In this document: positions 1,109-28,088 of the stretch, piece by piece
Position numbering within the stretch: the stretch's first letter is position 1
How the letters are laid out: each line of letters opens with the position of its first letter
Source: Clostridia bacterium
Lineage (GTDB): Bacteria > Bacillota > Clostridia > JAAYHZ01
Assembly (NCBI GenBank): GCA_050950825.1
Contig: JBMNIH010000004.1
Location: 480,001-544,000, forward strand
DNA length: 64,000 nt
Reading direction: 5' to 3'
Notes under the pieces: generated by a model
Seen by the model: the letters and a program-made list of their open reading frames with translations, nothing else
Databases searched by the model: none
What the model was told of the DNA's origin: nothing
Position numbers and translations under genes: made by a program

Positions 1109-1603
1109 TTATAACTGTTCTTCCAAAAGCCGCTGGCTTAGAGGATCCAGCGCCTTGTAGTTTTGTATCTCGTAACGGTTGTCATTGATATCGTTGACAA
1201 CGATATATCCGTTACCGTACGACTTAATATTCACATTCGGATCTTTCACATCGAAGGAGGTTGTTCCTTTATCGGTAACCACGGTCCAAGTGAATATGTG
1301 ATATTCTTCCTTGATACTGAGTATCCTCTTGATTTTAGGAATAACATAGTATCTGTCCAAGGCGGCGGCTAACGTTTGCTTGGACTCTTTGTTCAAATCC
1401 TTCATGTCGTCCAGAATAAACACTTCTTCTCCTTCATTGTCAATGAAGTTGATGTGTCTTGTTTTCCCCGTCAGCGGAAACAGTCTCCGAGGCTTTATAT
1501 TTTCAATTACCTTTCCTCCGGCACATTCCACTGTTACCGCGCCGTTTTTAACAGGTACGATATTCTTTACTTCAGTCGCTCTAATGTAATTTCCTAATGG
1601 CAT
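1109..1603 (-). CDS. DUF1854 domain protein
   Basis: PRRLFPLT, RYYVIPKIKRI, WTVVTDKG, DINDNRYEI...LDPLS motifs; GGAGG RBS; directly downstream of an ABC exporter, the usual DUF1854 context. Confidence 0.8.
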   Translation of the reverse strand: MPLGNYIRATEVKNIVPVKNGAVTVECAGGKVIENIKPRRLFPLTGKTRHINFIDNEGEEVFILDDMKDLNKESKQTLAAALDRYYVIPKIKRILSIKEEYHIFTWTVVTDKGTTSFDVKDPNVNIKSYGNGYIVVNDINDNRYEIQNYKALDPLSQRLLEEQL

Positions 1604-8312: not shown

Positions 8313-8380
8313 GTCCTATGGTCAGTAATTCGTCGAACATGTTGTTCGGCGGATTACTGTTAACATAGATCCATATCGAT

Positions 8381-8486
8381 ACTTATCAAGAGAGGTGGAG
8401 GGACATGGCCCTGTGAAGCCCGGCAACCGATATGCCATAAGCATATCAAGGTGCTAATTCCTGCAGGTTTATCCTGAAAGATGAGT
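8381..8486 (+). ncRNA. SAM-I (S-box) riboswitch
   Basis: CTTATCAAGAG-GGTGGAGGGAC-GGCCC-GTGAAGCCCGGCAACC...GGTGCTAATTCCTGCAG...CTGAAAGATGAG matches the S-box consensus; terminator at about 8499-8523; upstream of metK. Confidence 0.95.
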
Positions 8487-8807
8487 AGTCATTATAATCT
8501 CTTCCTTCAGGGAAGGGTTTTTTGTTTCTAGAGGGTTTTTTTCAAAGAACCCCTGCAAAACAAAAGCAAGTGCAGTTGAAATAACGGTTATAATATCTTC
8601 GCAGGAATCGAAGTTTTCTAAAAAAGTTAGTTTCACCTGATCTTGAATAAAGGGATATGGAAGGACGAATTCTACGCTGATTTTCGCCCGTACGCGGCTG
8701 CGTGTATTCTTTATGAAAAGCGTAAACAAAAGAACACGGTGACGTCGCACGCCGTTTTGTTATTACAATATGTGCCGCAAGCGACAGCGGCGGAATGGAG
8801 ATTTTTT

Positions 8808-9995
8808 ATGACCGTTAAATTTTTTACATCCGAATCCGTTACGGAAGGACATCCCGATAAAATTTGTGACCGAATATCCGATAGCGTACTGGACTCCATC
8901 TTGGAATGCGATCCTTTTGCCCGTGTTGCCTGCGAAACGGCGGTAACTACCGGAATGGTTCTGGTGATGGGAGAAATTACGACGAATTGTTATGTAGATA
9001 TACCGAAAATTGCTCGCAACGCCATTAAAGACATCGGATACGACAATGCCGAATACGGTTTTGATTACAAAACATGTGCCGTGTTGACGGCTATCGACGA
9101 GCAATCCGCGGATATTGCCATGGGCGTCGATAAATCCTATGAGAATAAGCTCGGAAAGCAGGACGAGCTTCAATACGGCGCAGGAGACCAGGGCATGATG
9201 TTCGGATACGCATGCAACGAAACCGCCGAATTGATGCCGATGCCCATCACTCTTGCCCATAACATTACTCGGGAGCTGGCACGTCTTCGAAAGGAAAGAA
9301 TTTTACCCTATCTTCGGCCGGACGGAAAAGCCCAAGTGACCGTGCAATACGATAACGGTGTCCCGGTTCGGATCGATGCCATCGTCATTTCCACGCAGCA
9401 CGACCCGGACGTAACGCAAAAGAGAATTCATGATGACTTAACGGAAAACATCGTCTTGAAGGTTTTGCCTGCCGGGCTTATCGATAAAGAAACGAAAATA
9501 TTCATAAATCCCACCGGACGTTTTGTCGTAGGAGGCCCCCAAGGAGATTCCGGCTTAACGGGCAGGAAGATCATCGTCGATACTTACGGCGGCATGGGAA
9601 GACACGGCGGCGGCGCTTTTTCCGGTAAAGACGCGACGAAAGTGGACCGGTCCGGAGCATATGCAGCCAGAAATGTGGCGAAAAACATCGTTGCGGCAAA
9701 ATTAGCGGATCGCTGCGAGGTGGAAATCGCTTACGCCATCGGTGTAGCGGAGCCGGTATCGGTTTTTGTGGAAACCTTCGGAACCGGAATCACGGATGAC
9801 GAAAAGATTGCTTGCGCCGTAAAACACTTGTTTGATTTAAGACCCACCGCTATTATTCATAACTATGACTTAAGAAAGCCTGTCTATTCCCGAGTATCCT
9901 GCTACGGCCATTTCGGAAGACCGGATTTGGATCTGACATGGGAAAAGACAAACAAAGTACAAGAATTAAAAGATTACTTTAAGATCCGCACCTAA
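8808..9995 (+). CDS. metK: S-adenosylmethionine synthetase
   Basis: [28 protein letters not shown]; true start ATG 8808 after GGAG. Confidence 0.97.
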
Positions 9996-19884: not shown

Positions 19885-21000
19885 TTAACGGCGGAACAGG
19901 GAGGCAAGCCGGCGGAGGCGCGGCAAGCATTGATCGAAAAAGGATCGGTAGGAACTGCAGTAGATGTTCAATCCGGGTTTTCCTTCCGTGAAAGGTTCTC
20001 TGTAGCGTTTGCATCCGCCTCGGCATACGGGATAAAAAGGACATGCCCGGCAAGCCGGATCCACATGAAAGGATTCTTTGATAAAAGCTTGGGCTTGAGG
20101 GGATTGAAAAAGCTCATCGATGGAAAGGTCTTTAATGTTTCCCATGCAACAGCGGTCGATGCAGTAAAAGTCGCAGGGATATACGTTCCCGTTTCCTTCC
20201 ACCACGAACTGGCAAGCACAAATTCCGGACATGCCGCAGGATTCGGGAGGTTGACCCATGAGCATTTGAACCAAATTGTCAAAATAGCGAATGCTGACAT
20301 ATTGATTTTCCGTTGCCGATTTGTAGTACAGATCGAAAAGCTGTATAAGGAATTTTTCGTAAAGCTCGGGAGTCAGCGAATAAGGATTTTGTCCTTGGAC
20401 TTGCTCCAAAGGATCCAAACAGGGTATGAACTGCAGATATCGAAAGCCGTTCTTTTTGAAAAAGTTAAAGACCTTTTGGATATGCTGTGCAACCGCCTTA
20501 TTCACTACCGTCAATATGTTATACTCCGCCCCGTGTTTGTCCAAAATTTCGATGCCTCTCATAACACGGTTAAAGCTACCCGATTGGCGTCCGTCTTTTC
20601 GATTTAAATCGTGAATTTCTTTCGGTCCGTCTAAGGAAACCCCGATAAGGAACCGGTGCTCTGCCAAAAAAGACGCCCAATTCTCATCGATTAAGGTCCC
20701 GTTGGTTTGTATAACATATTGAACCGTTATATTTCTATCGTTGTATTTTTCCACCGTTTTAATAAGGGTTTCGTAAAATTCTAAACCCGCTAAAAAAGGT
20801 TCTCCCCCTTGAAAGGCGAACAAAACGGAATCCGCACCGGATGCCAAGGCTTTTGAAACCGTGCTTTCCATAATATCTTCGGACATAATGCCGAAATTTC
20901 CGGCTTCCCGTATGGAGGTGAGATCATGGTAAAAGCAGTAGCTGCACCTTAGGTTGCAGTGCCCGGACGCCGGTTTAATCAACAAGCTTAAATTCTTCAT
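19885..21000 (-). CDS. Anaerobic sulfatase-maturating radical SAM/SPASM enzyme (anSME/AslB family)
   Basis: KPASGHCNLRCSYCFY, FQGGEP, QTNG, SPASM cysteines (C..C..YPCDF...CRACPFYPVCRGGC...YC). Confidence 0.92.
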   Translation of the reverse strand: MKNLSLLIKPASGHCNLRCSYCFYHDLTSIREAGNFGIMSEDIMESTVSKALASGADSVLFAFQGGEPFLAGLEFYETLIKTVEKYNDRNITVQYVIQTNGTLIDENWASFLAEHRFLIGVSLDGPKEIHDLNRKDGRQSGSFNRVMRGIEILDKHGAEYNILTVVNKAVAQHIQKVFNFFKKNGFRYLQFIPCLDPLEQVQGQNPYSLTPELYEKFLIQLFDLYYKSATENQYVSIRYFDNLVQMLMGQPPESCGMSGICACQFVVEGNGNVYPCDFYCIDRCCMGNIKDLSIDELFQSPQAQAFIKESFHVDPACRACPFYPVCRGGCKRYREPFTEGKPGLNIYCSSYRSFFDQCLPRLRRLASLFRR

Positions 21001-21056
21001 ACCTTTTCAACCTTTCTTTTACCCATGGTTTTCACGGCGAATATCCGTTCTTATGC

Positions 21057-21266
21057 AAAAACAATGAGTCGGAGGGGGGTCCGACTCATTTACTATAGAG
21101 GCAGTCGTATTCGGTTAAGGAGGATAGCTAACGAAACGGCAAAATAAGACGGGTCATCTTCTAAGGGGAAAATATTTAAAGGCTTAAGATATTAAGGACA
21201 TGACCGTTTCGCCTCAGTTACAATATTCGACTTTGTAACACCCGATAATACTCACCTCTACAACCT
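21057..21266 (-). ncRNA. Candidate structured non-coding RNA / cis-regulatory leader (family not recognised)
   Basis: Minus-strand TTGACT(21300-21295)-16 nt-TATAAT(21278-21273), nested complementary segments and an 11-bp terminator hairpin with U-tail; no ORF of 60 aa or more in the track. Confidence 0.6.
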
Positions 21267-21542
21267 GAATTTATTATATCCTAACTGTAAAAAAAGTCAA
21301 CGTGAAATTCATGTATAGCTCTATAGATTTACGCCGGAAAGCATGATAAAATCATCGATAATCCGGAAGAAAGGCGGGAAAGCCAAGGATTTTCATTTGG
21401 GAAATCGGAGAATATTGTGAAAAGCAAGGAAAAGGGTATGCATGTCAGGGTTTATGTGTTATAATTTAAATAATATAATATAAACTATAATAATTTTAAT
21501 ATTAAATCAAAGCGGAATAAATTTTTGGACAAGGTGGAGTAT

Positions 21543-22940
21543 ATGACCGAAAGAACAGAAATAAAACAACTATTTAAGAATTACCAAGAATGGAACGGTA
21601 GAGTATTTCATGTTACGGGATGGGTTCGAACCATCCGAAGCTCCAGTGCAATCGGATTTATCGAATTAAACGACGGATCGTATTTTCGCAACGTACAAGT
21701 TGTATTTGAAAATGATAAAATAGAAAATTTCAAGGAAGTAGAGAAGCTGAATGTGGGAGCTTCCATTCGGGTAACCGGTGTTTTGGAAGTTACCGTCAAT
21801 ATGAAGCAGCCTTTTGAATTAAAAGCAAGAGAAATCATTATCGAAGGCGAAAGCTCACCCGCTTATCCTCTGCAGAAAAAAAGACATTCCTTTGAATATT
21901 TAAGAACCATTGCGCACCTTCGACCTCGAACCAATACTTTCTCGGCGGTATTTCGCGTGCGCTCGATCATGTCTCACGCAATTCATACTTTCTTCCAAGA
22001 TCGAGGCTTTGTTTATGTGCACACTCCCATCATTACCGGCAGCGATTGCGAAGGAGCCGGTGAAATGTTCCGAGTGACAACCTTGGACCCTGAAAATCCG
22101 CCCAGAGACAAGGAAGGGAAGGTGGATTTTTCAAAAGACTTTTTCGGAACGCTTACCGGATTGACCGTCAGCGGGCAATTGAACGTAGAGGCCTTTTGCA
22201 TGGCCTTCGGAAAAGTCTATACCTTCGGTCCCACTTTCCGTGCGGAAAACTCCAATACGGCAAGACACGCATCGGAATTCTGGATGATCGAACCGGAAAT
22301 GGCCTTCGCCGAGCTTGAAGACGACATGAATTTAGGGGAGGAAATGCTGAAGTACATTATCCGTTATGTTCTGGACCATGCTCCCGAAGAAATGGAATTC
22401 TTCAACAGCTTCATCGATAAAGGCTTGTTTGAGCGGTTGGATAATGTGTTGGAATCGAAATTTGACCGCATTACCTATACGGATGCCATACAAATTTTAA
22501 AGGATTCGAAGAAGGAATTTGAAAATCCGGTTTTCTGGGGCTGTGACCTGCAAACGGAACATGAACGCTTCCTTGCGGAAGAATACTGCAAAAAGCCGGT
22601 TTTCGTTACGAACTATCCGAAAGAAATCAAAGCTTTCTATATGAGGCTGAACGACGACGGAAAAACCGTTGCCGCCATGGACTTGTTGGTTCCCGGTGTC
22701 GGCGAAATTATCGGCGGAAGCCAAAGAGAAGAACGCTTGGAGGTATTGGAAGGAACCATAAAGCGCCTTGGAATGAATATCGAAGATTATTGGTGGTATA
22801 ACGATTTAAGAAGATACGGTACCGTTAAGCATTGTGGATTCGGGTTAGGTTTTGAAAGAGCCATGATGTATATGACAGGTATGACCAATATTCGTGACGT
22901 GATACCTTACCCGAGAACACCCAAATCGGCAGACTTTTAA
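21543..22940 (+). CDS. asnS: Asparagine--tRNA ligase
   Basis: [53 protein letters not shown]. Confidence 0.97.
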
Positions 22941-23359: not shown

Positions 23360-23548
23360 GTTAAACGTACCATTCTCCTCCCTCCTTATCGGAGGGGTTT
23401 TTTATTCGTATTTCATTGTTTCGCCGATGCTGTGCTATAATAAAACGGATAAAGCTTTCGGAATGAACCGAAAGATAAACGAAACGGGCAAAAGCGTCAT
23501 ATGAAGGAGGCTTTCGCTCTTTATAATAATAAACGGAGGTACCGATTC

Positions 23549-25009
23549 ATGTCCGATCAAAGACCGAACGTTGTATTGATTATGGCCGACCAACTACGAG
23601 CCGACTGTTTAGGTTGTTACGGAAACAAGGCCGTTGAAACGGAATACATCGACTATTTGGCATCGGAGGGCACCTTGTTTGAAAACGCCTACAGCCCCAG
23701 CCCTTCCTGTATTCCTGCAAGAACCTGTTTGATGACCGGAATGACTCCTTGGAACACCGGTATCTTGGGTATGGGGGAAGGCCAAGGAAGAGTGACCACG
23801 GGTTTTGCCCATACGCTCCCGGGCGAGCTTTCGAATGCCGGTTATCATACGCAAGGTGTAGGAAAGATGCATTTTTCCCCCCAACGATCTCTAAACGGAT
23901 TCCATCATACGGTTCTCGACGAATCCTTACGTAAAGAAGACAAGAATTTTAAATCGGATTATCATGAATGGTTCGAAAAAAACAGAACCGGAGATTACGG
24001 TCCCGTTGACCACGGGATTTCTTTCAATTCTTGGATGGCAAGGCCCTTCCAAGCACCGGAATTTCTTCATCCTACCAATTGGACCGTAAACCAAGCCATT
24101 TCCTTTTTGGAACGTAGAGATCCTTCCAAGCCCTTCTTTTTGAAAGTTTCCTTCGCACGTCCCCACTCTCCTTATGATCCTCCCTTATGGTATTACGAAA
24201 AGTACAAAAGCAAAGATTTGCCCTTGCCGTATATAGGGGATTGGGCTCATATCCACGACGATGAAAGATTTGCGAAAAATCCGGATGCATGGCACGGACG
24301 GCTTCCCATAGAAAAGGTGATGGAGGCCCGTGCCGGGTACTACGGATCCATTCATCATATCGATCACCAAATCGGTAGATTGATGCAGTTTATGTCTCGG
24401 TACATGAAAAGCGAAATGAACAATACCATGTTCATCTTTACTTCCGACCACGGTGACATGTTAGGGGATCACCACATGTGGAGAAAAACATACGCTTACG
24501 AAGGCTCCGCCCGCATCCCTCTCATTGTGAAGCTGCCTTCGAGCATGAAAATAAAACAGGCGGAAATATGCGATAAACCGGTCACCTTATACGACATCAT
24601 GCCTACCGTTTTGGACCTTGTCGGAGCTCCCATTCCTTCTACGGTAAACGGGGCGAGTCTTTTGCCTTTGACACAAGGCAAGGATGCTCCTTGGAGAGAC
24701 GTGGTTCACGGCGAGCACAGCGCCTGCTATTCAAAAGAAGAAGAAATGCAATTTGTTACCGACGGGAAATTCAAATACATATGGTTCCCGAGAACGGGTA
24801 GAGAGCAGTTCTTCCGATTGACGGAGGACCGTTCCGAAAGCAAGGACTTGATTCATGACCCGAGCTATTCCGACGTTATATGTCGCTACAGGAGCCGGCT
24901 GATTGAAATATTGAGAGAAAGAAACATAGGGCTCACCGACGAGAACGGTCTTACCGTTCAGTCGAAGCCTATCGTTTCACCGGAATATGCAAAAAGGGTT
25001 AAAACATAA
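23549..25009 (+). CDS. Cys-type (formylglycine) sulfatase, no signal peptide
   Basis: PNVVLIMADQ, C-I-P-A-R (CxPxR), GKMH, PHSPY, TSDHG...H...K. Confidence 0.92.
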   Translation: MSDQRPNVVLIMADQLRADCLGCYGNKAVETEYIDYLASEGTLFENAYSPSPSCIPARTCLMTGMTPWNTGILGMGEGQGRVTTGFAHTLPGELSNAGYHTQGVGKMHFSPQRSLNGFHHTVLDESLRKEDKNFKSDYHEWFEKNRTGDYGPVDHGISFNSWMARPFQAPEFLHPTNWTVNQAISFLERRDPSKPFFLKVSFARPHSPYDPPLWYYEKYKSKDLPLPYIGDWAHIHDDERFAKNPDAWHGRLPIEKVMEARAGYYGSIHHIDHQIGRLMQFMSRYMKSEMNNTMFIFTSDHGDMLGDHHMWRKTYAYEGSARIPLIVKLPSSMKIKQAEICDKPVTLYDIMPTVLDLVGAPIPSTVNGASLLPLTQGKDAPWRDVVHGEHSACYSKEEEMQFVTDGKFKYIWFPRTGREQFFRLTEDRSESKDLIHDPSYSDVICRYRSRLIEILRERNIGLTDENGLTVQSKPIVSPEYAKRVKT

Positions 25010-25037
25010 CTTGATAAATATAAAGGGAGAAGTAAAA

Positions 25038-28000
25038 ATGCACGGCGGTAATTATTTTAACGAAAACAAAAAGTCAATCATTCGCTCCAACATCGAAAAG
25101 TATGCTTGGGCAAAAGAACTGGCGGCACAAACGACGGAAAAAGCGGACAGAATGCTGAAATTCGGGAAAAGGTTTTGGTGGACTCTACCCACTCCCCAAG
25201 AGCTTCCGAGAAGCTCCAACCCTTGCCAAACGAATTACGGCTGTCCCGTATGCGGAGAAGAGATTCTTTTAAAATACGGAGCTACCGGTTGGATTCATTT
25301 GATCGAGGACAACCCGTGGAAAACCCAATGCCCGAACTGTAAAAGCATCTTTCCCGCTAACGACTTTAAAAGTTATTATGAAAGCGGTCTGGACGAGCGG
25401 GGAATTTTCCGAAAAGAATTGGCGGACAAATCTTTCTTAGTCAATACGCTTTATCCCGACAAAGGCGAAGACTATTTTGTCGACGACGGGACCGGATATA
25501 CGGATGCCAACGGAATCTTTTGGTCCTTTATACCTCAATATATCCACTATGCCATCTGGTTGGACGTCCACAACATCGGCGGAACCGATAACGGATTCAT
25601 AACCAACGGGCTGAAGCATTTGAGCGAGGCTTGGATCTATACCGGGGATTTAAAATACGCCTTGTACGTATTGATGATTCTGTACAAGGTATCCATGGTA
25701 TATCCGGATATGGACTTAAATCTTTACATGAGACTTCCCGGGCGGCCCTATCGAAACAGCGACGGATTTTCGCTGCAAGGTAAAGTCGTCGGCAGCATTT
25801 GGGAAACCTTCTCCGCACGTATTTTCTGTTATGCCGCCGATGCGGTGCTGCCGGTGCTGAGAGAATATCCCCAAGAAGTTACAAGCTTTTTTAAGGACGT
25901 TTATCCCACGGATCCCGAAACCATTGAAAAATCCATATTAGACGGAATTGTACGTCAAGTGTACAAGGAAATTAAAAACGCTCGTATCGCAGGCAATGAA
26001 GGAATGCACCAATCCGCTTTGGCAATGGCCGCCGTATGTATGGGCCTTTGCGACGAATCGAGAGAATGGCTCGATTTTCTGTTCAAACCCGGAAAACGGA
26101 TTTTGGAACAGGATCCGATTATGGGCTTAAAAGGTTACTTTACCGGATGCAACGTTTTCGGTGTTTTGGAAAACAAGGTGAACGGCGACGGGTTAGGCGA
26201 CGAATGCTCTCTTATGTACAACCGCTTATGGATGGTGGAATTCGCTCGTTTAGCGGATATCTTGTCCGCTTACCCGGGTATAGCGGGATCGAAGTACGAT
26301 TTGAAAACCCATCCCGTCATGAAAAAAATGTATAAAAGCTACGTTCCTTTCGTAATCGACAACGATTATATACCGAAAACCGGAGATACGGGAAAAACGG
26401 GCAACCCGATGAAGGTATTCGACGGAGACAACCTGCAAAAGTTTTTATGGGACGGCTACCGGGTGACGAAGGATAAAGGCATTTTGGATCTTTTTAATAT
26501 ATCTTATCCTATGGCGAAAGAAGGCACATTCGGCTTTATTGACATTGAAAACCCGGAAGAAGCCGCAAGAATATTGCAAGAAGCCAAAGATCCGAAATCT
26601 CCCATGCACGAAAGGTCCCATAACATGACCGATTACGGAAACGCTCTGCTAAGGCAAAGGGTAAGACACGGATGCAATGTTCATATGTACTACGGCCGTA
26701 CCATGGGACACGGGCATTTGGATAAAATGAATTTCGAGATTATCGCCTACGGTATGAATTTTTCTCCCGACCACGGCTACCCGGAATATGCGGAAAACAT
26801 ACCTAGTCGATACGAATGGACCTCCAATACCGTAAGCCATAACACGGTCATGGTAGACCGAGCCGGGCAACTCAACACCAAGTATGCGGGAATCCCCTTA
26901 GGATACGAGGACGGAAAAAACATCAAATTTATCGATGCGGAAGACGTGAAGGCTTACGAGCAAGTGTCCATGTATCGGCGAACCCTGTGCCTTGTGGATA
27001 TTACCCCCGATAAGGCCTATATCGTGGATTTTTTCCGCGTGGCGGGAGGATCACGGCATGAAATCTCCTTCCACGGCGGAGAAGGAGAGGTTAAGATAAA
27101 GGGAGTCAGACTCATCGATCAACCTTCCGGAACCTTAAAAGGAGAAGACGTGCCTTACGGAGAAGTGAAAGGCTTCCAAAAAGGAGGAGGAAGAAAACGA
27201 GGGGACGGCTATTCCTTCTTGTATGATGTTCGAAAATCCGAAGTGCCCACCGATTATGTGGAGCTGACCTATGAACTGAAGGACACTTGGGGAATGCTTA
27301 CGGATAAGAACGCTAAGCCTTATTTAAAGGTCTACATGCCCGGAAGAAAGCATCGAACGGTGATAGCCAAAGGAAAGCCTCCTACAAACAAAATCGGAAA
27401 CCCGAAATTTTTGTACTATTACTTAGGAGAAAGAAAAGGAAACGATCTGAAAAGCCGATTTGTATCCGTTTACGAGCCCTTCTTAAATGAAGGCTTCATT
27501 CGGTCGGCGGAATTGTCGCCCGTCAATAACGAAAAAGAATCCTTTGAAAGAGGCTGTGTGAAGATAACCCTTTTGGACGGGTCCGTGGATTATGTAATTC
27601 ATTCCGTTGACGATGTGGAAATGAACATCAATAACATCGTAACCTTCCAAGGCCGCTTTGGCTTTTTGAGGGTGAAGGACGGAAAAGTGAAGAAAGCCTT
27701 TATGTGGAGAGGAAGCCGTTTGGCATATAACGGCAATACTTTACTTGAGATGAACAAGCCTTTCATAACGGGAACGGTGAAGGATTTTCAAAAGGAAATC
27801 AGCGACGAGCATTGGGTCGATTTGGTATTGGAGAAGCCCATCGACTCTTTGGAGGATGTTATAGGACGGTACGTTTATATCGACGGAAACGATGTGGGCA
27901 ATGCCGTATACGAGATCTTAGGCGTGGAAAAAACCCGTGAACCGAATACCTATCGATTCAACACCGCAGCCTCACCGGTGCGAGGATACGTTGACGATTG

Positions 28001-28088
28001 CGATCCTTCGAAAGGCTATATATATCGCTTCGGCGAAGGAGCAAAAGCGGAAATACCCCTGTATTGTGAAAGGGATTTTGAAGAATAG
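25038..28088 (+). CDS. Large heparinase II/III-like (polysaccharide lyase-like) protein with N-terminal zinc ribbon
   Basis: GHGHLD...PDHGYP...NTVSHNTVMVD...YRRTL...YIVDFFRVAGG of the Hepar_II_III C-terminal domain; GNEGMH and E-x-S-x-x-Y-N in the alpha domain; CPVC/CPNC near the N-terminus. Confidence 0.75.
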   Translation: MHGGNYFNENKKSIIRSNIEKYAWAKELAAQTTEKADRMLKFGKRFWWTLPTPQELPRSSNPCQTNYGCPVCGEEILLKYGATGWIHLIEDNPWKTQCPNCKSIFPANDFKSYYESGLDERGIFRKELADKSFLVNTLYPDKGEDYFVDDGTGYTDANGIFWSFIPQYIHYAIWLDVHNIGGTDNGFITNGLKHLSEAWIYTGDLKYALYVLMILYKVSMVYPDMDLNLYMRLPGRPYRNSDGFSLQGKVVGSIWETFSARIFCYAADAVLPVLREYPQEVTSFFKDVYPTDPETIEKSILDGIVRQVYKEIKNARIAGNEGMHQSALAMAAVCMGLCDESREWLDFLFKPGKRILEQDPIMGLKGYFTGCNVFGVLENKVNGDGLGDECSLMYNRLWMVEFARLADILSAYPGIAGSKYDLKTHPVMKKMYKSYVPFVIDNDYIPKTGDTGKTGNPMKVFDGDNLQKFLWDGYRVTKDKGILDLFNISYPMAKEGTFGFIDIENPEEAARILQEAKDPKSPMHERSHNMTDYGNALLRQRVRHGCNVHMYYGRTMGHGHLDKMNFEIIAYGMNFSPDHGYPEYAENIPSRYEWTSNTVSHNTVMVDRAGQLNTKYAGIPLGYEDGKNIKFIDAEDVKAYEQVSMYRRTLCLVDITPDKAYIVDFFRVAGGSRHEISFHGGEGEVKIKGVRLIDQPSGTLKGEDVPYGEVKGFQKGGGRKRGDGYSFLYDVRKSEVPTDYVELTYELKDTWGMLTDKNAKPYLKVYMPGRKHRTVIAKGKPPTNKIGNPKFLYYYLGERKGNDLKSRFVSVYEPFLNEGFIRSAELSPVNNEKESFERGCVKITLLDGSVDYVIHSVDDVEMNINNIVTFQGRFGFLRVKDGKVKKAFMWRGSRLAYNGNTLLEMNKPFITGTVKDFQKEISDEHWVDLVLEKPIDSLEDVIGRYVYIDGNDVGNAVYEILGVEKTREPNTYRFNTAASPVRGYVDDCDPSKGYIYRFGEGAKAEIPLYCERDFEE

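Follow-up and report, generated by a model that had tools for sequence, protein, structure and literature searches.

A conserved structured RNA of about 210 nucleotides upstream of the anaerobic sulfatase maturase gene in a small group of Clostridia

What does the non-coding DNA between asnS and the anaerobic sulfatase maturase gene (anSME) encode, and does it serve the gene that follows it, other transcripts, or both? An initial annotation of the 64,000-nt stretch of Clostridia DNA considered here (the window) proposed that the minus strand of this region gives rise to a structured RNA of about 210 nt, either a small RNA with multiple targets or a riboswitch or attenuator that gates read-through into anSME. 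As will be seen below, the RNA is strongly conserved, transcribed and structured, and it serves anSME as a 5' leader at the least. Its possible roles beyond that of a leader are weighed one against the other in the following, and it should be noted that conservation was judged from three genomes only, namely the genome of the window (G000) and two relatives (G001 and G002), which hold three distinct sequences of the RNA in all.

The positions of all features are collected in Table 1. In the window, anSME is convergent with [FeFe]-hydrogenase genes, and divergent from it, on the plus strand, lie asnS, an Asp23-family gene, an arylsulfatase gene and a heparinase II/III-like gene. The arylsulfatase gene overlaps the start of the 1033-aa heparinase II/III-like gene, and the pair (23501-28088, plus strand) suggests a small glycosaminoglycan-desulfation unit that anSME would serve. 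Genome-wide, six matches to the Sulfatase domain and one to anSME were found. Among the neighbours, no regulator gene adjoins the RNA. Elsewhere in the window, an ordinary SAM-I riboswitch (8380-8487, plus strand, 89.6 bits) is located directly upstream of metK (8643-9995), the gene for S-adenosylmethionine synthetase.

Table 1 Features of the RNA locus and of related genes. Positions are those of the window, except for the 6S RNA genes, which are given by contig of the same genome.
Feature	Position	Strand	Remark
-35 box TTGACT	21295..21300	-	invariant in 3/3 copies
-10 box TATAAT	21273..21278	-	spacer 16 nt; invariant in 3/3 copies
RNA of ~210 nt, predicted	21057..21266	-	start 21266/21265 inferred from the -10 box; end, U tract after the terminator
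P1, 5' strand UUGUAGAGGU	21254..21263	-	pairs with 21093-21102
P1a UCGG	21242..21245	-	pairs with CCGA at 21111-21114; helix 2, invariant
P2 hairpin GUUACAA-loop-UUGUAAC	21217..21239	-	helix 3
P3 domain	21131..21212	-	closed by GCGAAACGGU/GCCGUUUCGU; two small inner hairpins; helices 4-6
60-nt run	21147..21206	-	identical in the 3 known copies (alignment)
UCCUUAA, first YCCUUAR motif	21192..21198	-	predicted unpaired 0.46-0.54
CCCUUAG, second YCCUUAR motif	21161..21167	-	within UUUUCCCCUUAG; predicted unpaired 0.75-0.85
Junction strand AUCCUCCUUAA	21115..21125	-	similar to the 3' tail of 16S; includes the third YCCUUAR; predicted unpaired 0.71-0.91
P1, 3' strand GCCUCUAUAG	21093..21102	-	fold and consensus structure
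Terminator hairpin, intrinsic	21063..21090	-	11 pairs; CCCCCC loop (21074-21079); then GUUUUUG
anSME, anaerobic sulfatase maturase (radical SAM/SPASM)	19885..21000	-	NF010321, 501.5 bits (cut-off 441); TIGR03942, 397 bits
Arylsulfatase	23501-25009	+	NF010322, 599 bits
6S RNA gene (L034)	C10:11930-12132		
6S RNA gene (L035)	C3:228492-228687		

The promoter that had been assigned to sigma-A, TTGACT-16-TATAAT, is present where it had been placed (21300-21273, minus strand). It is near-consensus, with 11 of 12 positions matching, and is the best of seven promoter-like sites in a scan of 20500-22000. The 11-bp terminator with the CCCCCC loop is also present, with strands that read AATGAGTCGGA-CCCCCC-TCCGACTCATT, followed by GTTTTTG (21090-21063, minus strand). 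The 27-nt core of this hairpin, loop included, is invariant in all three copies, while the U tail is weaker in the G002 copy. The start codon of anSME (position 21000) lies 56-62 nt past the terminator, in line with the distance of about 55 nt originally given; the corresponding spacer measures about 58 nt in a contig of the G001 type and 127 nt in G002. In none of the three genomes does this spacer contain a promoter-like site (at least 9 of 12 matches), and the RNA promoter is probably the only source of anSME transcription. A promoter within the 3' part of the RNA (TTAACC-N15-17-TATAGT/TATAAA/TACAAT) was flagged in G002 only, with 9 of 12 matches, and was rejected as a conserved element because neither the spacing nor the -10 box is kept.

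Two side observations concern the terminator and the spacer. In one metatranscriptome run (X18, contig depth 125), G replaces T at window position 21080 of the plus strand, which alters the A-U pair that closes the terminator loop and extends the run of C residues to seven; this change is a natural variant in which the C-rich loop is retained. In the 127-nt spacer of G002 (L003, ~1372-1499, minus strand), CCCCUUA..AAGAUG partially echoes the invariant core segment CCCCUUAGAAGAUG, and a similar echo, UAUUAAAG..AAGAUGA, is found in the G001 spacer. These echoes could be the remnant of a duplication or pure chance.

As for structure, the 221-nt stretch has a folding energy of -57.7 kcal/mol (z = -3.37), a value that was attained by none of 200 shuffled sequences. 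The RNA forms a closed multi-branch domain and a separate terminator hairpin. Most of the helices described in the initial annotation are part of the computed fold. These are the long closing stem (P1, UUGUAGAGGU/GCCUCUAUAG), which is stable, comprises 10-13 pairs and continues by AGU/ACU and then UCGG/CCGA, the GUUACAA/UUGUAAC hairpin and the GCGAAACGGU/GCCGUUUCGU arm, for which an alternative ACGGUCAU/AUGACCCGU pairing is possible. A junction strand of 16-17 nt carries AUCCUCCUUAA. The GUUAG/UUAAC hairpin with AUCCUCCU in its loop, on the other hand, had to be abandoned, as it appears neither in the minimum-free-energy fold nor in the consensus fold, and as the alignment shows its 5' arm to be altered without compensation in both G001 and G002.

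Homologues of the RNA were searched for by several methods. BLAST recovered it in G001 (85% identity) and G002 (81%), i.e., together with G000, in three of the 61 relatives searched. These are all three genomes of the same order; in each of them the element is kept as a whole, from the -35 box through the terminator, with its stems maintained, and the order asnS-RNA-anSME is the same. As for the question of whether the context of homologues is fixed or varies, the RNA thus always lies between these two genes. No copy beyond the three was found by BLAST in 399 scored Clostridia genomes, where the remaining matches span at most 39 nt with E of at least 0.004 per genome. A covariance model built from the three copies scores these at 240-257 bits and reaches at most 21 bits in 148 other Clostridia genomes; the weak matches are plain terminator hairpins and were rejected. 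A search of genome contigs based on the anSME protein gave 99 pattern matches, none of which was confirmed. Scans with exact patterns yielded one metagenome contig, with an RNA identical to that of G001, and two records of metagenome-assembled genomes labelled uncultured Clostridia, with no additional sequence diversity.

The extent of conservation is best appreciated in relation to the divergence of these genomes. The anSME proteins of the two relatives are 73% and 64% identical to that of G000 by pairwise alignment (74% and 65% by genome search), and only 23-34% of the four-fold degenerate sites of anSME are identical among the three genomes, from which it follows that neutral sites are saturated. 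Nonetheless, 171 of 224 columns of the RNA alignment are invariant (76%). The longest invariant run, of 60 nt, can be compared with runs of 17 nt both in 6S RNA of the same genomes (three sequences, 148 of 221 columns invariant) and in the SAM riboswitch, for which the yardstick is the G002 orthologue of the 8380-8487 element (two sequences, 90 of 138 columns invariant).

Standard pairs make up 98.2% of the pair cells in the consensus structure, vs 33-44% when the partners are slid. Helix 1 (P1) has 12 pairs, of which six are unvarying and four vary on one side, and 91.7% of its cells are paired. Two-sided changes occur in P2 only, where four pairs differ in one lineage in an alignment that was fitted to the model, and which for both reasons amount essentially to one event. 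P3, the inner hairpins and the terminator are unvarying except for one A-U to G-U change each in the closing stem of P3 and in the outermost pair of the terminator. Since there are three distinct sequences only, support for the pairing consists of the one P2 event and of one-sided changes, and this narrow distribution blocks covariation statistics. As judged from the alignment, structure is maintained where sequence varies, and most of the RNA is constrained in sequence beyond pairing. Covariation is seen neither in the inner stems of P3 nor in the terminator stem, which stay the same in these copies, and the constraint exceeds the requirements of structure.

To consider transcription, we used Logan contigs from four metatranscriptome runs of four studies. 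These runs were chosen because they contain the stretch, and this should be considered when referring to the finding that contigs cover the RNA in all four. In three runs, the 5'-side ends of the contigs (21255, 21251 and 21256) lie 9-15 nt inside the predicted start at 21266/21265, so that the transcript sought for the predicted RNA is seen to end near this start; one of these ends abuts what we take to be an Illumina adapter sequence. In the fourth run, the contig ends at 21196. The interval 21262-21474 is without cover in every run, and in three of the four the contigs of asnS start at 21494/21495; the cover is therefore RNA-shaped and does not reflect DNA carry-over. This asnS contig start precedes, by about 50 nt, the ATG placed at 21543, with an alternative TTG at 21525 (21494-21545 of the window, plus strand); as Rfam detects no T-box in the asnS leader, asnS seems to be without the leader that is usual in Firmicutes.

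All four contigs cross the terminator into anSME, reaching 20499, 20532, 20740 and 20495. The mean depths of the contigs that bear the element are 90, 110, 534 and 125, and those of contigs located deeper in anSME are 2.5-7.3; in run X17, for example, a contig at 20740-21256 (depth 534) abuts one at 20525-20757 (depth 7.3). Contig depth is a whole-contig mean, and contigs carry neither strand nor a 3' end or RNA level. We infer the terminator to be the place of the depth drop, and the transcribed strand from the promoter. The high-depth contig, or the one that continues it, comes to an end at 20495-20532 in all four runs, and 20410-20480 is uncovered; cover of anSME is interrupted at 20341-20494, and contigs of lower depth resume further into the gene. 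No terminator or other feature was noticed in the sequence of the region 20341-20532, and the stop near 20495-20532 may be an effect of assembly.

We tentatively favor, with a probability of about 0.45, the reading that this is a stable, terminated, C/U-rich RNA with a function of its own, which also serves as the sole leader and promoter for anSME. It is ranked first because the terminator is independent and invariant, because P1 is long and because the constraint on the RNA is greater than that on 6S RNA and on the SAM riboswitch. In such a scheme, the strong promoter of the housekeeping type would drive the RNA of about 210 nt, and the long closing stem together with the independent terminator would make it a compact, stable molecule. 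Most transcripts would stop at the terminator and accumulate, whereas a minority would read through, and no other origin of anSME mRNA is visible. The invariant P3, the junction strand AUCCUCCUUAA and the C6 loop, with three exposed YCCUUAR motifs, would form the working surface of the terminated RNA, and this surface would most likely bind a partner in trans, be it a protein or G-rich segments of other RNAs that resemble Shine-Dalgarno sequences.

The tracts that would form such a surface are as first described, i.e., four C/U-rich tracts that are invariant in all three copies; three are predicted to be mostly unpaired (0.71-1.0), and the first is predicted to be unpaired with a probability of about 0.5. 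For UUUUCCCCUU, AUCCUCCUU and the C6 loop of the terminator, the predicted unpaired probability is 0.72-1.0. The YCCUUAR motif occurs three times in 210 nt, vs 0.04 occurrences expected from the genome, although the motif was defined after being seen. With the 16S 3' end of the organism, the RNA has only CCUCCUU in common. The five 16S rRNA gene copies of this genome (contigs C1, C2, C4, C7 and C10) have identical 3' ends (...GGAUCACCUCCUUUCUAAGGAG), and near each of them there is a 195-codon open frame whose start region is the same in every case, probably a spurious frame that falls within the rRNA operon.

Against the preferred reading, no target in trans stands out by blastn-short or by duplex energies. 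Among the best 60 of 1713 blastn-short matches, none is a complementarity to rRNA, and the best non-self complementarities in the genome (18/19 and 16/17) fall within coding sequence and are no better than expected by chance. When four segments were run through duplexfold against 2382 crudely placed gene starts, no outlier emerged (best z about -4.7), in what was a crude comparison of duplex energies alone. The ribosome-binding sites of sulfatase genes, asnS and anSME took unremarkable ranks by duplex energy, and sulfatase genes were not enriched. Duplexfold of the whole core returned meaningless duplexes with long loops and was set aside. Further points that count against a stable RNA with its own function are that a location 56-127 nt upstream of a co-oriented, promoterless gene is the classic position of a cis leader, that whole-contig depths cannot place the drop in level or the strand, and that there are but three distinct sequences and runs selected for containing the stretch. 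Of the role of a multi-target small RNA, as initially proposed, a real conserved RNA with exposed tracts is thus borne out; its exclusiveness is not, as anSME is without a promoter of its own, contigs read through into it and no target is outstanding.

Possible as well, but on balance doubtful, is that the RNA acts purely in cis, as an aptamer or protein site that controls termination or mRNA stability before anSME, with the short RNA being a by-product of attenuation. The arrangement itself speaks for this, since promoter, domain and terminator precede the start codon by 56-62 nt with no other promoter-like site in any of the three genomes, contigs run on into the gene, the junction strands are highly conserved and the linkage to anSME is kept throughout. 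The sulfatase and heparinase II/III-like genes, 2.5 kb away, would also fit. The folds are not in its favor. When either strand of the terminator was blocked in constrained folding, the other found no partner and the upstream domain was unchanged, in all three copies. No antiterminator that competes with the terminator was found in any copy by this approach, which argues against an RNA-only switch of the usual kind. The structured domain folds alike before the terminator is made and closes 3-5 nt ahead of it, and its closing stem is long and stable. In folds of the full 5' UTR, the ribosome-binding site of anSME pairs with nearby spacer or coding sequence only and never with the C/U tracts of the leader, i.e., no masking in cis is predicted.

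Distribution and conservation point in the same direction as these folds. The anSME gene is common (63 of 399 genomes at E <= 1e-40), but nhmmer and the covariance model found the element at none of the 27 best other Clostridia anSME loci (one match of 12.9 bits), and a terminator-like hairpin of any kind occurs in the 450 nt upstream of only three of these. In the terminator of the RNA, stem and loop alike are invariant and do not covary, and, as noted above, no regulator gene adjoins the RNA. What stands of the proposed riboswitch or attenuator is thus a conserved leader domain from which contigs continue into anSME, while the antiterminator and a presence at other anSME loci are both missing. 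The initial idea that such a leader might sense sulfur or sulfated substrates is speculative.

It is unlikely that the element is a constitutive insulator or dosage device, in which a strong promoter and a leaky terminator fix a low level of anSME and the 5' domain only stabilizes the mRNA, with neither sensing nor a role in trans. A terminator without competitor and the existence of read-through are what such a device would show. However, a hairpin that only stabilizes would need far less than an invariant run of 60 nt and 76% of columns unchanged at saturated divergence, and the exposed repeated motifs are themselves invariant. Quite unlikely, in our opinion, is a combined scheme in which the domain is the sensor of a riboswitch-like class for a sulfatase-linked signal, such as sulfate, a sulfated sugar or a radical-SAM by-product. 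It would act without an antiterminator, by polymerase pausing, RNA stability or recruitment of a factor, and the released leader would tune other mRNAs via its anti-Shine-Dalgarno-like motifs.

Known systems offer several points of reference for the preferred reading of a stable RNA that doubles as a leader. RsaE/RoxS and hairpins 7, 13 and 14 of RNAIII exemplify the C-rich regulatory small RNAs of Firmicutes. Like these, the present RNA has its own promoter and intrinsic terminator and exposes C/U-rich tracts, one in the terminator loop, that are complementary to Shine-Dalgarno-like sequences. It has, however, no sequence or Rfam relationship to RsaE/RoxS, is about twice the size of RsaE and carries YCCUUAR and CCUCCUU rather than UCCC as its motif. 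It also differs from C-rich small RNAs in doubling as a gene leader and in that its target search gave no outlier. SreA and SreB of Listeria and the attenuator RNA rnTrpL are leader-derived RNAs that act in trans and respond to a known signal. Here, too, a terminated leader would accumulate and might affect other transcripts, with read-through supplying the gene downstream, although their leaders are a known riboswitch or attenuator and the present RNA is a candidate only. With leaders of terminator-type riboswitches, such as SAM-I before metK, it shares the succession of promoter, multi-branch domain closed by P1, intrinsic terminator and gene. Unlike in these, there is no alternative between terminator and antiterminator, the stems are invariant rather than covarying, and the element is limited to one order and absent from other anSME genes. 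By analogy, the RNA would work most like the C-rich Firmicute small RNAs and the leader-derived trans-acting RNAs, and it is a member of neither class. The raiA motif RNA (PMC10861870) is reported to be a structured Firmicute ncRNA of ~200 nt that was first taken for a cis element of its neighbouring gene and had no function assigned at first. The present RNA resembles it in size, in being structured and in lying beside a gene, but raiA is widespread across phyla and included in Rfam, while our RNA has no Rfam match and occurs in three genomes only.

That the RNA is a divergent member of a known family (6S, T-box, RsaE, raiA, etc.) missed by the Rfam models is very unlikely. It does recall 6S RNA in that it is highly abundant, has paired ends and measures about 200 nt, and its C-rich tracts recall RsaE. 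At the gathering score, however, Rfam 15 has no match at the RNA locus in a search of the whole window, the 6S, T-box, SAM, lysine and RsaE models included. With E raised to 10, the searches gave two trivial matches on 20900-21600 and two on the two homologous loci, none of them common to the copies. The Rfam search proposed at the outset, 6S included, thus leaves novelty standing, and the early judgement by eye that the T-box, SAM-I and lysine consensus do not apply is borne out. The fold is branched, unlike the 6S rod with its central bubble, and RF00013 does not match; a T-box leader is not indicated either, for lack of both an Rfam match and an antiterminator. Moreover, two canonical 6S RNA genes (67.6 and 64.4 bits) lie elsewhere in the genome, so that the RNA is not the 6S RNA of the cell; the first of these (C10) is 78% identical in G001 and 76% in G002. 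A literature search found no publication that joins anSME with a riboswitch or small RNA, and in two discovery papers (PMC11109978 and PMC8632094) neither sulfatase nor radical SAM appears in the main text.

Finally, a small peptide encoded by the conserved block, e.g., MSLIS after a GAGG ribosome-binding site, is hardly credible and was rejected, as a GAGG-N10-AUG mini-frame does lie inside the invariant block but invariance there extends to every codon position as well as to the non-coding bases on either side, a second mini-frame (AUGACC...) is frameshifted among the copies by 1-2-nt indels and the longest frame has at most 13 codons.

The RNA family described here is uncatalogued and belongs to a small group of Clostridia from anaerobic digesters. 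If the preferred reading of a stable RNA with its own function is true, a poorly known Clostridia lineage of anaerobic digesters would possess an RNA family that no catalogue holds, and an essential enzyme-maturation gene would be without a promoter of its own and depend on read-through from an RNA gene. The 60-nt run that is invariant at saturated divergence suggests that almost every base is read by some partner.
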